DNA of 64,000 nucleotides from contig OY762964.1 in the NCBI GenBank assembly GCA_963667035.1, forward strand, positions 259,245-323,244, written 5' to 3'. The DNA comes from Candidatus Cloacimonadales bacterium (GTDB lineage Bacteria; Cloacimonadota; Cloacimonadia; Cloacimonadales; JAFGVF01). Position 1 is the stretch's first letter; each line of letters starts with the position of its first letter. The translations under genes and the position numbers were made by a program. The notes under the pieces are model-generated. The model saw only the letters and a program-made list of their open reading frames with translations, had not been told where the DNA came from and did not search any database. Shown here one piece after another: positions 9,955 to 41,617 of the stretch.

Positions 9955-11514
9955 TTATTTTGCAACAGCTACCTGTCTGGTTTCTCTGATAACGGTTACT
10001 TTTATCTGTCCGGGATATTGAACATCCTTTTCAATCTTTTCTGCAATGTCATTTGCTATGAAAGGAGTCTTTGTATCGTCAATCTCAGAAGGCTCAACGA
10101 TAATCCTTAACTCTCTACCTGCTTGAATAGCGTAGGTTTTAGTTACACCTTCAACTGAACTTGCAATTTCCTCAAGTTGTTCAAGACGTTTCATATAACT
10201 TTCAAGCATTTCTCTTCTGGCTCCGGGACGAGCACCTGATATAGCATCACATGCTTGTACAAGCGGTGCATAAACGGAGATAGGCTCAACATCTTCGTGA
10301 TGAGCTTCAACAGCATTGATAATAATCTTACTTTCACCGTTCTTTCTAACAATATTAGCACCGATTGCTGCATGAGAACCTTCAAATTCATGGTCAACAG
10401 CTTTCCCGATATCATGCAAAAGAGCAGCTCTTCTAGCTATTTGTTGATTTAATCCAAGCTCTGCAGCCATTATTCCACACATCCAAGCAGCTTCAATTGA
10501 GTGCTGAAGGATATTCTGACCATAACTGGTTCTATAGTGGAGCCTACCCAGCAGTTTAATTAGGTTTGGAGACAAATTGTGTATGTTTGCTTCGAGAGAT
10601 GCTTTCTCACCAATTTTAACAAGATTCTCATCCATCTCTTTTGCAGTTTTTTCAATAACTTCTTCTATTCTTCCCGGATGAATTCTACCATCCATGATAA
10701 GCTTCTCAAGAGCTAGTCTTGCTATTTCTCTACGTACAGGATCGAAGCAAGACAGTACAACAGCTTCAGGAGTATCATCAATGATTAAGTCAACACCGGA
10801 TGCTTTCTCGAAAGCTCTAATGTTTCTTCCTTCACGTCCGATAATTCTACCTTTCATTTCATCTCCTGGTAGAGAAACTACTGCAACAGTACTTTCGGAT
10901 ACATGGTCAACAGCCATTCTTTGAATTGATAAAGAAAGTATTTCCGCAGTTTTTTTGGCGGCGTCATTCTTAGTTTGGTTAATCATTTCACGAACTTCAC
11001 CGGAGATTCTCTTTTTAACTCCATCAATAAGTTCTGATTTTAACTGACCTGAAGCTTCTTCTCTTGTCATTCCGGCAATTTCAATGAGCTTTGTTTCTTG
11101 CTCTTGAATGAGCCCATCAAGTTGCTTATCTCTTTTACCAATATTTAACTCCAACTCTTTGAGTTGGCCTTCTTGTTTTTGGAGATTACTTTCTTTTTTG
11201 TCTAGAGACTCGATTCTCTTCTCAAGTTTTGTTACACGTTCATTATAAGTGTTTTCTTGAGTTCTAAGCTCTTTCTGTCTGTCTTTGATTTCATCTTCGT
11301 AAACTTTCTTGGTTTTGTACCAATCTTCTTTAGCTTCGAGAATTGTTTCTTTTCGTATGGAAGCTTTCTCATTGTTAGCTTCTTCAATTATTTTATCTGC
11401 CTGGTCTTTAGCGGTAAAGATTATAGCCTTTGAACGCTGTTTGAGGATAATAAAAAGAATACCTGCCCCGATTAGTCCTATAACTAATCCGATTAGAATA
11501 TAAACAATATTCAT
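9955..11514 (-). CDS. rny: ribonuclease Y
   Basis: N-terminal TM helix, long coiled coil, KH domain ([15 protein letters not shown]) and HD domain (LLHDIGKA). Start set at MNIVYILIG (11514) because the upstream 29 codons overlap a structured non-coding segment. Confidence 0.9.
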
Positions 11515-20489: not shown

Positions 20490-20634
20490 ATCAACTCCCT
20501 GAATTATTATAGTAACTCCTATAAACCCTTCTACAAACATGGATAGGCGAAAAGAGATTTATGACAAGCTTTTTATCCATAGATTTATCTAAGAACTTGG
20601 GAGCTATTCTGTTGTCTATTTGAATAGCAAAATT

Positions 20635-23600
20635 CTATTGAAGGATTAATAAATCAATCTCTGCCGGAGCCATGAGCTTGATGAATTGATTATAGCTCCT
20701 AATAAATGAGTTTTGCCAATTTATATCTTGGAATTGCTTAAAGCTTCTGATAGGAATGTGTAATCCTACTTTGATGTTCCTTGAAGTTTTTTTATAGTAG
20801 ATGTTCGAAAGCTTGTTTTGTATCTTTAATTTGATATAGTTACCTAACAAGTCTCTAGAGAATGGATAATCAAGGTTGAGGGTGAATTCAATCTTTATAC
20901 TATTATTGATTAATCCTATTTCAAGCAGTTGCTTTCTAGAGGGTTTAAGTCTTTCCGTGTTCAAGTAAAGTTTCGCTATTGTGGGATTATCAAGATATTG
21001 AAGTTTTAGAGCTTCATTAGATTTTGACTGTACGAAACGCTTAAAGCTATGGAACTCCTCAAAACCAACAGGTAGTTTCCTTTGATAATTGTTTAATACG
21101 TTTTCTATGATAGGGATATAGTCTTCATTAAGCACCATAGTGCGGTCGGAATAGCTATATTCTAACGGTGATTCTATCAGGTAGCTGGTGAAGTATCTGT
21201 TGCTGACGCTTATAAACTTCTGAGGAGTACGAAAAATCCCATGCTCTTCAAGAACAGAATTGATATTATTGAATGTCATCTCGTCTTCCTTTCTATGCAT
21301 TAAAAGCATAGTTTGAAGGAATACATCAAAGCTGGAGATACGAGACTCTTCTAAAATCATTCGTAACAAGTTTCCGGTGAGCGGTTGGATGTTTAAACTA
21401 CTGACGTGTAAGTTATAGGAAATTATCTCAGGAAGAACCTCTCGCAATTTAGCTGAGTAGATAGCCTTGTAGTGATACGGAGCTGTTTTACCGAGTGAGA
21501 ATTTAATCCCTTTATTGTTTAGAACTTCTTCACTAACTCCTCTTAAATGAATTGTCAGACGTTTAGGAGAAACAGTTATCCTAATAGTTTTTTGAACAGC
21601 TTTGAATAATGGGAAAGCTTTGATTGTGTAGAAATCTATGTGCGTACGATTCTCATCGGTAACATAACGTAAGAACCAACCACGAAAGAAGATTCTTTCA
21701 CTTATTTCTTTGTATAACTTATCATAAGACATTACAAAATGTCTTAAACTATCTTTTTGGGCATCCGTAAATGTGGAAATATGATGTTTCAAACTCAAGC
21801 TCTTGATTTGTAACAAATCTAATACAAACTGTTGAAGAGTGACAATACTCTCTTCTACTTCATTCTTGTTAAAGGCTTTTCTTGCTTGAATCAGTATATA
21901 CTTCCCTTCATCTTTGTTACACTTGACGAATGGGAAGTCGGAGAATTTATCTTTATAACTATAGAAGCCATAATCATCAATTGCAAGTAGGTCCTTAGTC
22001 ATTTTACTGAATCCGGAAGTACTAACTAAAATACACAATTGCTTTTTATCATTCAAACAGAAATAAGCTTTCTTAAAAGGATAATTAAAATTATAGGGTA
22101 GGTCTCCATGGATTCTGTATATAGCAAGATTACCTTCAATAGAAATATCCGTGTTGGCAGAAAACAATCCCATAACTTTATCTGTAGCCTGTTTGCATAA
22201 GAAGAGAGGAATAACGGATTTAAGCATCCATCTGATGGAACGTCCTAATAATCCTTTGAACTTATCTGCATTGATATTGGGAGCGAAAGCATCTATCTTA
22301 GAATAATCAAAAGCATTGAGGTGATGTTTTAATGCTATTCTTTCAATGGGATATTCAGATTCATGGAAGTCACCTCTTAGATAGATGTTAACTTCATTTT
22401 TCCAATATTGAATTATAGCAAAAGGACAACTCAAGTCAGAAATGGCAAACATATCAAAGCCTTCACGATACGCCTTTTCTATTAGAGAAATTCCCATTCT
22501 GTCAGCAGTTTCAAGTATTAGACTCTTGATTACTTCAACTTTGACCTCTCTTTCCATTTCCTCGATATTGTGTCCCTTCAAAGCAGGAACATCTTTATAC
22601 TTTAACTTAATTAACTGAAGTTGTAAATTCTCTTCTTCGGCAAGAACAAGATCACTCCAAGCAGTTTGTAACAGTTGTCTGAACTCATAGATCGGGTTGT
22701 TGCGAACGAGAACCTTGTAACCACCATGGAATGTGCTATATACCTTGCCTTTGTAGTCATAATAGACTAATTCCCTAAATCTCATGTATTGAATACCTGC
22801 ACTCTTGAGAACAAGTTCGAAAGTTATTTCCTCATTACTTCTTGGATTGAGATTTCCATGCCAGGTTTCACTACCGTTCTTGAGTTCTACTCCTTCCGGT
22901 AAGAATACGGTAAAATCTACATCTTTAGCTACTCCTAAACCGGAATTTCTGAGACTGACAGTGAGATTTATTGTTTCACCTATTCTTGCTTCATCCTGTT
23001 TATGACCGGAGCTGTCTAGTCCGTAGTCTAAACTAACCGACATGTTAACAACAGGGATAATGCTAAATACGTCAGAGGGGTCAATTACTGTGCAGAATAG
23101 AGCTTCGGAATACTCAGTATTAGTCTTTATACCATCTTCATCCGGCATAGGTTTTACGTTATTGCCTCTAACGTCTGTATAGCAATAGCTTAACCTTAAA
23201 GGTGGAAACTCATATTGCCCGCTTCGCTTGGGACTTATCTCGACTCTTGTTTTCCAAGTTCCGTTAGGCTCTAAATCAATATCCTCAAAGGCGATTGTAT
23301 GATAGTCATCACTTGTGTTTTTTAAGATAAGTGTACGACCTTTATGAAAGTCAAAGTAAACAGGTAACTTAAGTTCGAAGTTCACATCTTCTGCGACTGT
23401 ATCTCCATTGTTCTTGATGCTAATATCCAGATAGGTTTTATCTTCTTTAGTAATGAAGTCATCTATCAGCTTATACTTTACATGAATTGACGGAGCTACT
23501 TCTTGTAGAAGAGAGTCATCTTCAATAAGTAATCTTAAGTTGAAGAAATCTCTGGATATTACATCAAATCCGGAGTCAAAGTCGTTTACTTCATCTCTAG

Positions 23601-24384
23601 CTATAGTAATAATCTCTCTATTATTCATGTATTGAATGATACCTTTCTTCCTGTTCACGGTTTTGTAATAAGTATAGCCGAAGCTCCTTAAATCGTTTCC
23701 GCTTTTCGGTAGATTGATAAACATTGGGTAGAGAGACAGAAATCTTCCTGTTTTAATTTCCATTAAGTAGGGTTTGAACAGTTCTAGGGCATTATTGGAA
23801 TGAGATATTGTGGCTATGGTTATTGAACCGTTAAGGTAAGTCTTTACCCTGTAACTAATCCCCCCGGTTGTTGATAGAGTCTCTATCGGAACTACAATCT
23901 TATATCTTCTAAGAAAGTCACAACGCTCCAGCATTGCAGTTATAATTTCTTGTCTTCTATTCAGTTCCTTATTCAGCTCCGATTCATCTAAGATAAGCCC
24001 GCTATGAGCATCTTGGTTTCTAGCTGAAATATAGGAACTGACAAAATTCTCCCAATCTGAATCCATATCATGATAAAGATTATAAATTTCAGGGACAAAG
24101 CTATTCTCTCCCAGTATCTCACTAATTGTTCTAGCAATCATATTCCATCTGCCAAGTGATATCTGAGAAAGGTCAATGCCCTTTGGAACAGGTAGTTTTT
24201 CAGAAGATGAGTTTAGACTCTTCTTGTGGAGTAATGAGTAATTACTAATAGAGATAATAGAGAGGAATCTCAGCAATGTTTCTACACATAGTCTTTGATA
24301 ATCTCTTCTTTGGATAGAATTTTCAAGGCTTTGTTTATATGGTAGATAAACAATTGCAGGATAATCAGAGAAGTCGTTATACAT
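20635..24384 (-). CDS. 1249-aa hypothetical protein: N-terminal HEPN-like four-helix region (R122-N-Q-D-A-H127), two CARDB-like Ig domains, large uncharacterised C-terminal half; no signal peptide
   Basis: Uninterrupted 3.75-kb ORF. ISARNQDAHSG is encoded at 24030-24001. DISIKNNGDTVAEDVNFELKLP and INLTVSLRNSGLGVAKDVDFTVFLPEGV resemble CARDB repeats. The ATG lies 1 nt after the stop of the upstream HTH gene, with no SD of its own. Confidence 0.8.
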   Translation of the reverse strand: MYNDFSDYPAIVYLPYKQSLENSIQRRDYQRLCVETLLRFLSIISISNYSLLHKKSLNSSSEKLPVPKGIDLSQISLGRWNMIARTISEILGENSFVPEIYNLYHDMDSDWENFVSSYISARNQDAHSGLILDESELNKELNRRQEIITAMLERCDFLRRYKIVVPIETLSTTGGISYRVKTYLNGSITIATISHSNNALELFKPYLMEIKTGRFLSLYPMFINLPKSGNDLRSFGYTYYKTVNRKKGIIQYMNNREIITIARDEVNDFDSGFDVISRDFFNLRLLIEDDSLLQEVAPSIHVKYKLIDDFITKEDKTYLDISIKNNGDTVAEDVNFELKLPVYFDFHKGRTLILKNTSDDYHTIAFEDIDLEPNGTWKTRVEISPKRSGQYEFPPLRLSYCYTDVRGNNVKPMPDEDGIKTNTEYSEALFCTVIDPSDVFSIIPVVNMSVSLDYGLDSSGHKQDEARIGETINLTVSLRNSGLGVAKDVDFTVFLPEGVELKNGSETWHGNLNPRSNEEITFELVLKSAGIQYMRFRELVYYDYKGKVYSTFHGGYKVLVRNNPIYEFRQLLQTAWSDLVLAEEENLQLQLIKLKYKDVPALKGHNIEEMEREVKVEVIKSLILETADRMGISLIEKAYREGFDMFAISDLSCPFAIIQYWKNEVNIYLRGDFHESEYPIERIALKHHLNAFDYSKIDAFAPNINADKFKGLLGRSIRWMLKSVIPLFLCKQATDKVMGLFSANTDISIEGNLAIYRIHGDLPYNFNYPFKKAYFCLNDKKQLCILVSTSGFSKMTKDLLAIDDYGFYSYKDKFSDFPFVKCNKDEGKYILIQARKAFNKNEVEESIVTLQQFVLDLLQIKSLSLKHHISTFTDAQKDSLRHFVMSYDKLYKEISERIFFRGWFLRYVTDENRTHIDFYTIKAFPLFKAVQKTIRITVSPKRLTIHLRGVSEEVLNNKGIKFSLGKTAPYHYKAIYSAKLREVLPEIISYNLHVSSLNIQPLTGNLLRMILEESRISSFDVFLQTMLLMHRKEDEMTFNNINSVLEEHGIFRTPQKFISVSNRYFTSYLIESPLEYSYSDRTMVLNEDYIPIIENVLNNYQRKLPVGFEEFHSFKRFVQSKSNEALKLQYLDNPTIAKLYLNTERLKPSRKQLLEIGLINNSIKIEFTLNLDYPFSRDLLGNYIKLKIQNKLSNIYYKKTSRNIKVGLHIPIRSFKQFQDINWQNSFIRSYNQFIKLMAPAEIDLLILQ

Positions 24385-24385
24385 T

Positions 24386-25012
24386 TTAATCTGTATTAAG
24401 TACTGAATTCTTATCTTTAAATATCAGTTCCGAAGCATAATCATTATCATCAGCAAGTGCATCACTTAAACTAACTTCTTTCTGAGGAGTCTCAGTTTCC
24501 TGACTTTCTTTAAGCTTCTTCATTAACTCTCTTTGAGTATCTTCCGGAGTTTCCTCGTTTTCAGTATCACTGTTAGCAGGGGGGGGGGCAGGCTTTTCAA
24601 TGTTAACAAATCTCTTCTTAAATGGAGAACCAAGACTTCCTTTTTGATATAGTCTAGCAAGTGAGAAGGCAATAATTATAACTAGTATACTTATTCCGAT
24701 TATGTATAGAAGATTAAAGGAGATAAGAATCTTGTTTTCTTTTATATTTTCTTGAGGTTTAAAATTATGATTATTTGAATGGGGATAAGTATTATCGAAA
24801 GTATAGAGAATCTCTTTCTCATTAGCTTTGAGAGCTTTTCCATAGTTGAAAACAACAGCTCTGGCTATACCGTAATCATGAAGAATCTGAAATCTATTGG
24901 ATTCAATGTCTTCAAGATAATCAGTTCTAATCCTTGTAATATTATTAACATCATCAATTGAGAGTCCGTTAGCTTCTCTAAGCTGCTTCAGAAATGTTCC
25001 GATTTTCTCCAT
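24386..25012 (-). CDS. Xre-type HTH membrane protein (RodZ-like architecture, lacks the RodZ C-terminal domain)
   Basis: N-terminal HTH (FLKQLREANGLSIDDVNNITRIRTDYLEDIE), one TM helix (ILISFNLLYIIGISILVIIIAFSL), then a short acidic/proline tail. Confidence 0.65.
   Translation of the reverse strand: MEKIGTFLKQLREANGLSIDDVNNITRIRTDYLEDIESNRFQILHDYGIARAVVFNYGKALKANEKEILYTFDNTYPHSNNHNFKPQENIKENKILISFNLLYIIGISILVIIIAFSLARLYQKGSLGSPFKKRFVNIEKPAPPPANSDTENEETPEDTQRELMKKLKESQETETPQKEVSLSDALADDNDYASELIFKDKNSVLNTD
24579..24588. repeat. G10 (C10 on the coding strand) homopolymer inside the HTH-membrane gene
   Basis: Read directly: gttagcaGGGGGGGGGGcaggc. It encodes the PPP of KPAPPPANS. I noticed no comparable G/C run elsewhere in the window. 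Confidence 0.95.
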
Positions 25013-29257: not shown

Positions 29258-29285
29258 ATTATACTTGATAGAGCTTATATGTCAA
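29258..29285 (-). promoter_or_regulatory. sigma70-consensus-like promoter of the endonuclease gene
   Basis: Minus strand TTGACA-16 nt-TATAAT, with the -10 about 29 nt upstream of the ATG and a GGGAG RBS in between. Confidence 0.5.
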
Positions 29286-40835: not shown

Positions 40836-41617
40836 CTTGTTATTACAACTTCTAAAATTCTAAAGAACTCATCTTTTGCTTCTTTTTCTCTCCAAGGATC
40901 ATGTCCACAATTCTCTAATAGATAGAATTCATAATCCAAATCAGTCTCAAATAGAGGAAAATATACCCCTTCCCATGGATGGGGATCCCAATCACCATGG
41001 ATAGCAATAATTTTACACTTTACTTGTAGCAACTTACTTATTAGTTTACCACTCTCTCTTAAAGCTGATGCTTCTCCCCAGACTTTAGTATGAATCTCAA
41101 AATTGAAGCCTTTGTCTTGAAATTTTTCTTCTAGTGGATTATAATTATCGTTCATACATAAATATGAAGCATATTCCATGAACAATTTATCTTTAGCCTC
41201 ATTTGGCAATGTTGCCATTTTTTCTTGTATTTTTTCAATTGCTTGTTTATCTTCATCTGTCAATCTTGAGATTCTTGTTGGTGTTATAGATTTGGCATAA
41301 GAACACTGGAAAGGTCCACTACCAACTAAAATAAGCTTGTAAGTTAGTTCTGGATATTTCGCAGATAATAGGATAATCAACCAAGCCCCCCAAGAATGTC
41401 CAATTAACACAACAGGAATCTCTGCATATTGTTTAATTAAAGATGCTAATTCCTCAATTTGAGAATCGATACTAAACTTGGTCTGGATTGCTTCAATCAC
41501 ACCAAACCGTTGTTTTAAAGCATCAGCTATTGCTTCTAATCCTCCATTAGCTCCAGGTCCTCCATGAACAAGAATAACCTTGTATGGCATACTCCCATGT
41601 AATATCACATTACCCAT
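40832..41617 (-). CDS. alpha/beta hydrolase
   Basis: Nucleophile elbow LIGHSWGAW and C-terminal CGHDPW histidine region. Confidence 0.7.
   Translation of the reverse strand: MGNVILHGSMPYKVILVHGGPGANGGLEAIADALKQRFGVIEAIQTKFSIDSQIEELASLIKQYAEIPVVLIGHSWGAWLIILLSAKYPELTYKLILVGSGPFQCSYAKSITPTRISRLTDEDKQAIEKIQEKMATLPNEAKDKLFMEYASYLCMNDNYNPLEEKFQDKGFNFEIHTKVWGEASALRESGKLISKLLQVKCKIIAIHGDWDPHPWEGVYFPLFETDLDYEFYLLENCGHDPWREKEAKDEFFRILEVVITS

Follow-up and report, generated by a model that had tools for sequence, protein, structure and literature searches.

Runs of about ten G or C inside open reading frames, in which gain or loss of one unit leads to a premature stop, are known from genes of Neisseria, Campylobacter and Helicobacter, such as hmbR and hpuA (PMC3786947, PMC5084427). 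Such tracts vary between and within isolates, occur many times per genome, are mostly positioned early in the gene and are found in surface, uptake or restriction genes. In meningococci, hpuA tracts of 10 and 13 G are the common ON states, hpuA being the leading gene of the hpuAB pair (PMC3786947). C-terminal phase variation was described in Helicobacter canadensis, where homopolymers at the extreme 3′ end of genes alter or remove the C-terminus following slippage while most of the protein is still made, and where sequencing reads gave a range of tract lengths per locus, e.g., G11-17 (PMC2823697). Isolated G/C runs have been reported as well, the 7C run in glpK of M. tuberculosis (bioRxiv 10.1101/717272) and the poly-G run in rmpA of Klebsiella (bioRxiv 10.1101/2025.09.12.675794) both acting as reversible switches, with variants recovered from populations and tied to a phenotype. 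In the literature as far as its text was accessible, no report was found linking Cloacimonadota with repeat-mediated phase variation; the single paper containing both terms concerns, by its title and abstract, flagellar evolution.

The DNA analyzed here is a 64-kb stretch from a member of this phylum (the window; 64,000 nucleotides, GC content 35.9%). The initial annotation had pointed to a run of ten G, being C10 on the coding strand, as a possible ON/OFF switch for the giant gene located downstream. Reading of the minus strand and a census of homopolymer run lengths placed the run at 24579-24588, in the coding context AAG CCT GCC CCC CCC CCT GCT AAC AGT (KPAPPPANS). The codons GCC CCC CCC CCT specify A-P-P-P, residues 142-145 of a 208-aa protein, at 68% of the length of its gene. 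The peptide given in the annotation was thereby confirmed, as was the statement that no comparable G/C run exists in the 64 kb: the census yielded this single G10 and no other G/C run longer than 6, the next longest being two C6 runs (23860-23865 and 41386-41391), while the longest A/T run measured 8. Tandem Repeats Finder, run on the 64-kb window, detected no other contingency-type repeat. With its ten units, C10 lies within the slippage-prone length of contingency loci, taken as a G/C run of about 8 or more.

The chance expectation of such a run was calculated in two ways. Under an independent-base model, 0.0013 runs of at least ten G and 0.0025 runs of at least ten C are expected per 64 kb, giving about 0.004 in total. 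In the second approach, the proteins of 42 crudely called genes were kept fixed and codons were redrawn synonymously according to codon usage in the window; G/C runs of at least 10 appeared in 6 of 1000 resamples and runs of at least 9 in 20 of 1000. For one window, C10 is improbable. Extrapolated to the 3.1-Mb genome (about 50 windows), approximately 0.2-0.3 chance G/C runs of this length are expected, so that one isolated run needs no selection as an explanation. A single long G/C run is improbable locally, yet is to be expected occasionally per genome and many times across hundreds of thousands of windows. The codons making up the run are rare in the window, CCC representing 12% of proline and GCC 14% of alanine codons, and the joint probability of GCC CCC CCC given the peptide APPP is about 0.002. 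PPP was found twice in the 42 genes, the second instance being coded as CCT CCT CCA, without a run. Both the rare codons and the run-free coding of the other PPP indicate that the run itself, rather than the peptide, is the primary feature.

The gene carrying C10 occupies 24386-25012 on the minus strand and was identified as RodZ-like using Pfam HTH_25 and family alignments. In its protein, an N-terminal helix-turn-helix (HTH) domain and a single hydrophobic span precede a charged linker of hypervariable sequence; a conserved motif lies at the C-terminus, and the tail is acidic. The HTH_25 domain (PF13413; E = 2.8e-14, 53 bits against a cut-off of 24.6) covers residues 8-68 (24809-24991, minus strand). 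A presumed transmembrane segment, ILISFNLLYIIGISILVIIIAFSL, was read from the translation at approximately residues 95-118 (24659-24730, minus strand); the hydrophobic character of this 24-residue block is kept in 45 homologues, as judged from the alignment. The C-terminal motif, D-x-x-D-Y...L-I/L-F....S-x-L/F-N, was located at 24389-24457 (minus strand) by means of the same 45-homologue alignment, in which identities range from 25 to 71% and D188 and D191 are at least 90% conserved; its form in the family is D-(T/S)-T-D-Y...L-L-F....S-P-x-N. Following the alignment, the order common to the family is HTH, membrane span, a juxtamembrane G-x-L-x-x-P-F motif, hypervariable charged linker and C-terminal motif. 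C10 is situated at the very start of the hypervariable linker. Between the G-x-L-x-x-P-F motif and the C-terminal motif, no conservation was seen in the alignments of 5 orthologues and of 45 homologues, and the linker carrying C10 is probably disordered.

The 208-aa protein resembles RodZ, an HTH membrane protein associated with MreB, in the order HTH_25, single membrane span, extracytoplasmic tail, and in the proximity of dapB and dapF, which are cell-wall precursor genes. Unlike RodZ, it gave no match to DUF4115 in Pfam; its match to the NCBIfam model rodZ_Streptococcus (NF041534) was weak and partial, 45 bits being far under the cut-off of 375, and it belongs to a separate family of about 205 aa. 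Since the DUF4115 domain is lacking, the protein is described here as RodZ-like and not as a demonstrated RodZ. An exhaustive HMMER search returned 996 relatives with E < 1e-3, about 75 of them with E < 1e-10; the best-scoring relatives are mostly about 205 aa long and align end to end. One database source gives an orthologue the name 'cytoskeletal protein RodZ', and a second source assigns one to Candidatus Cloacimonetes. The relatives make up a distinct family with its own C-terminal motif at the place where RodZ has DUF4115. In this family a basic cluster follows the membrane span, which is the opposite of the juxtamembrane arrangement in E. coli RodZ.

Alleles differing in tract length were constructed in silico in order to check the frameshift outcomes. 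The C10 allele is in frame up to the normal stop and yields 208 aa. As the initial annotation had read, C11 leads to an immediate TAA (CCC TGC TAA; 24573-24575, minus strand) and C9 to the TAA in GAG AGT TAA (24523-24525, minus strand), giving products of 146 and 162 aa, respectively; the first stop is shared by C8 and C14, the second by C6 and C12. These stops are located 189 nt (C11) and 139 nt (C9) before the next ATG, in agreement with the distance of more than 130 nt put forward earlier. Loss of the acidic tail following either slip was likewise seen in the constructed alleles: 63 residues of the 208-aa protein are gone, and the conserved C-terminal motif is missing from every frameshift allele. 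A change of one unit in either direction alters the product (146 or 162 aa versus 208 aa), as it does in contingency loci. Because rod shape in E. coli depends little on the periplasmic part of RodZ (PMC6946637), the RodZ-like protein could stay partly active without its tail and, by this analogy, might retain part of its function.

Downstream of the RodZ-like gene lies the giant gene, encoding 1249 aa (20635-24384, minus strand). Both genes meet in a stop-start junction TAA-A-ATG at 24382-24388 on the minus strand (TAA 24388-24386, A, ATG 24384-24382). No Shine-Dalgarno-like pairing is present in the 22 nt upstream of the giant gene's ATG (duplex +0.4 kcal/mol), so the earlier statement that this gene lacks its own ribosome-binding site holds. 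Among the 42 crudely called genes of the window, 57% also miss the mark of -5 kcal/mol; pairing of that strength or better was found for about 43% of them, versus 14% of random positions. Operon-internal genes in the window mostly have no such pairing, which makes a missing ribosome-binding site weak evidence for special coupling in this organism. A spacing of 1-2 nt between stop and start is conserved in four lineages, including that of the window. The pair therefore has the adjacent stop and start, the missing Shine-Dalgarno sequence and the maintained arrangement that were looked for in a coupled pair, and this conserved tight junction would fit translational coupling. A further feature of such pairs, sequestration of the start in structure, was not seen in the predicted fold: no structure hiding the start was detected, the 266 nt around the ATG folding as shuffles do (z = -0.14), and in the centroid structure the ATG is unpaired within an AU-rich region no more structured than shuffles. 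Given an unstructured start and more than half of the genes without Shine-Dalgarno sequence, independent initiation of the 1249-aa gene is plausible according to the folding model. The termination-reinitiation coupling proposed initially would fit the spacing, kept in three other lineages, and is weakened by the open start and by the 57% of genes that likewise do without a Shine-Dalgarno sequence.

On the minus strand, the genes are ordered Endonuclease_NS, queC, M20 peptidase, dapB, dapF, RodZ-like, 1249-aa gene, Phos_pyr_kin kinase and HAD hydrolase. A sigma-70-type consensus, TTGACA-16-TATAAT, with a perfect 12/12 match was obtained by consensus scan only, upstream of the Endonuclease_NS gene (29258-29285, minus strand). 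This site probably heads an operon comprising Endonuclease_NS, queC, the M20 peptidase gene, dapB, dapF, the RodZ-like gene and the giant gene. Between C10 and the giant gene, a scan revealed no terminator-like site, and a promoter search between C10 and the giant gene's ATG gave only chance-level consensus matches.

The 1249-aa protein was characterized by domain searches, alignment and structure modeling. It is a signal-less member of a rare family and consists of an N-terminal helical bundle, a beta domain, two DUF11/CARDB-like repeats and a large uncharacterized C-terminal part; in Pfam and NCBIfam, only a DUF11 repeat was found. In the model of the N-terminal 320 residues (pLDDT 78.5, pTM 0.82), the helical bundle spans residues 10-160 and is followed by the beta domain. 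The bundle carries the motif R-N-x-D-A-H-x-G, which is common to the whole family, R122-N-x-D-A-H127 being invariant in 8 homologues. Some members gave sub-threshold Pfam matches to HEPN domains (HEPN_Swt1, E = 0.068; Csx1_HEPN, E = 0.01). Comparison of the 320-residue model with the PDB using Foldseek returned no match at E < 1e-3, the HepT toxin 6m6w having E = 0.26, and neither PADLOC nor a PDB sequence search with the 1249-aa protein produced a match. HEPN membership of the N-terminus is only hinted at, all matches staying under the family thresholds. The family is very rare, a search of 5.8 billion sequences yielding 6 proteins. Its distant members (28-31% identity), at the loci L007 (2002-13953), L008 (1430-9879) and L009 (96-8164), stand in other contexts without any HTH gene. 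The homologues in L007 and L008 adjoin further giant proteins, in L007 a paralogue, and those in L007 and L009 adjoin ion-channel genes (Ion_trans, TrkA_N/RCK).

Orthologous loci represent four lineages other than the window's own. In L001/L004 (71% protein identity), the RodZ-like gene is abutted by a giant gene of 1248 aa via TAG-CA-ATG. The giant gene is also abutting in L003 (56%; 1100 aa called; TAA-TT-ATG) and in L010-L013 (54%; 12 contigs; 1247 aa; TAA-TC-ATG). In L002 and L006 (58%), there is no giant gene and hence no junction; its absence means that the giant gene was gained or lost at exactly this junction. In its place, a non-coding stretch of approximately 600 nt leads to a MerR gene (1564-2159 in L002, after 1783 in L006). 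Taken together with the distant giant genes lacking an HTH partner, the solitary RodZ-like gene of L002/L006 shows that the pair is not an obligate unit, and from gene content the combination is a clade-specific arrangement rather than an obligate two-part system. Downstream of the giant gene, L001 has a PAP2 phosphatase gene (10393-11151) before the Phos_pyr_kin kinase gene, where the window has a 94-nt gap (20541-20634).

At the tract site, none of these four lineages (L001, L002/L006, L003, L010) has a homopolymer, the sequence being mixed, and no G/C run of at least 7 occurs anywhere in the 13 related loci that were fetched. None of the orthologues, nor any of the 45 aligned homologues, has PPP at the position of the tract. 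Retention of the tract in relatives, as looked for in a contingency locus, was consequently not seen, the nearest relative having 71% protein identity. Protein searches, exhaustive HMMER and scans of genome and metagenome contigs for closer relatives returned only the lineages of 54-71% identity, none with the tract. As judged from the loci compared, C10 is private to the window's lineage. Length variation was looked for in the single sample in which the strain was found, using three separately assembled runs available as Logan contigs (depth 5-11). G10 was identical in the three assemblies and no alternative contig appeared, contigs being known to drop minor alleles. An exact look-up of the predicted C7, C8, C9, C11, C12 and C13 products among approximately 15 billion proteins returned none of them, while the C10 form was present on a single contig.

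On balance, these results favor the view that C10 is a lineage-specific, incidental hypermutable run in a tolerant linker, not kept as a switch. The linker position apparently tolerates any amino-acid sequence, and the run would most likely have arisen by drift or slippage, the gene as sequenced being in frame and so ON. Judged from the G/C runs of similar length that have been studied, C10 would be a hot spot for slipped-strand errors of one unit. Each slip would leave a protein of 146 or 162 aa with HTH and membrane span and without the conserved C-terminal motif, and ribosomes would stop 139-189 nt before the abutting giant gene, the translation of which may fall, although its AU-rich, unstructured start could still be used alone. 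We infer hypermutability, a possible effect on the downstream gene and, most likely, a lack of selection for switching. On the sequence evidence, the tract is in the least conserved block of the family, and all four orthologous lineages are without the run, three of them with the same gene pair. The context, a housekeeping operon (queC, M20, dapB, dapF), points in the same direction, contingency genes being typically found among surface-glycan, adhesin or restriction functions.

Several observations pull against the incidental origin. The rare codons GCC CCC CCC imply that the run is not a by-product of coding prolines. Where a gene has a conserved tail, a long G/C run imposes a frameshift load, and population-genetic reasoning would expect synonymous changes to break up such runs when they are neither recent nor useful. 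Stochastic switching would be understandable if the HEPN-like giant protein served in conflict or defence. The variation data, moreover, come from one sample at depth 5-11, in contigs that drop minor alleles.

A rival reading is a true contingency locus, in which selection would keep C10 and slippage would toggle between full-length and tail-less RodZ-like protein, together with the 1249-aa protein; the downstream gene would respond through lost termination-reinitiation and perhaps also Rho polarity. We consider this unlikely, although its sequence-level mechanics stood up in the present analysis. The tract length is within the range of proven switches, both off-frames stop quickly, and rare codon choice marks the run and not the peptide as the feature. 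The RodZ-like and giant genes appear co-transcribed, with no terminator between them in the scan, and their 1-2-nt stop-start spacing without Shine-Dalgarno sequence is kept in four lineages. Precedents are hpuAB, where the leading gene of the pair, hpuA, carries the tract (PMC3786947), and genes in which a late tract alters the C-terminus (PMC2823697). Against these stand the orthologues with the same gene pair, all without the tract; absence of the homopolymer with retention of the pair was what the initial annotation had named as speaking against its switch, and L001, L003 and L010-L013 show exactly this. No length variant was found in the three assemblies or in the C7-C13 product look-up, and the tract is the only one in 64 kb. 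Translation of the giant gene could begin on its own at an unstructured start, and the two genes also occur apart, the RodZ-like gene without a giant gene in L002/L006 and the distant giant genes without an HTH gene. Nor is the layout the classical one that had been proposed: the tract sits at 68% of an upstream gene in a housekeeping operon, not inside the gene supposedly controlled and not near its 5′ end or promoter. As a classical switch for the giant gene, the locus therefore found no support. The evidence against a switch is weak, coming from one sampling of the strain, from contigs and from distant orthologues, and leaves the idea unproven rather than refuted. The strongest version, in which C10 would be a working Cloacimonadota switch that strips the outer tail from the RodZ-like protein and at once uncouples and silences the 1249-aa HEPN-like protein, thus acting on a downstream gene via lost termination-reinitiation, is still more doubtful. 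If the tract did switch, homopolymer phase variation would extend to an uncultured phylum of anaerobic digesters or sediments and to a pair of envelope and giant proteins, and natural ON/OFF alleles would offer a handle on the role of the rare 1249-aa family.

In the absence of EF-P, ribosomes stall on polyproline, and +1 shifts tend to occur at CCC-C sites when m1G37 of tRNA-Pro or EF-P is limiting. APPPA on CCC-C could accordingly be imagined as an EF-P-dependent pause or +1-shift-prone site that tunes reinitiation on the giant gene with no change in DNA. The rarity of PPP (2 in 42 genes, the other one coded without a run) and the fact that ribosomes shifting by +1 would terminate at the TAA reached by C9 would suit such a translation-level device; it is nevertheless improbable, PPP not being conserved at this position in orthologues or in the 45 homologues. 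A sequencing or assembly error, with a true tract of other length or an interrupted one, hardly deserves consideration: long-read platforms err mainly at homopolymers and the 3.1-Mb contig suggests a long-read assembly, but the three separately assembled runs all have G10, so that C10 is not an assembly artefact, and it is with G10 that the conserved C-terminal motif is read in frame.

C10 can be set beside the described systems. It shares with the poly-G/C genes of Neisseria, Campylobacter and Helicobacter an in-frame run of about 10 in which one unit more or less gives a premature stop and, as in hpuAB, the leading gene of a pair carries it. Unlike those tracts, it is single, shows no observed variation, is located two-thirds into a gene of a cell-wall operon and is absent from relatives. 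The likeness to Helicobacter canadensis consists in a late homopolymer, slippage in which would alter or remove the C-terminus with most of the protein still made. There, the tracts are at the extreme 3′ end and length ranges were obtained from reads; in C10, a slip would cost 63 residues including a conserved motif, and the tract is known from contigs. The reversible variants of glpK and rmpA were recovered from populations, whereas C10 is known from the contigs of one sample; what it has in common with both is an isolated G/C run within a single gene, a configuration that can act as a reversible switch even in genomes not otherwise rich in tracts. The phenomenon itself, a poly-G/C tract, is of a known kind.
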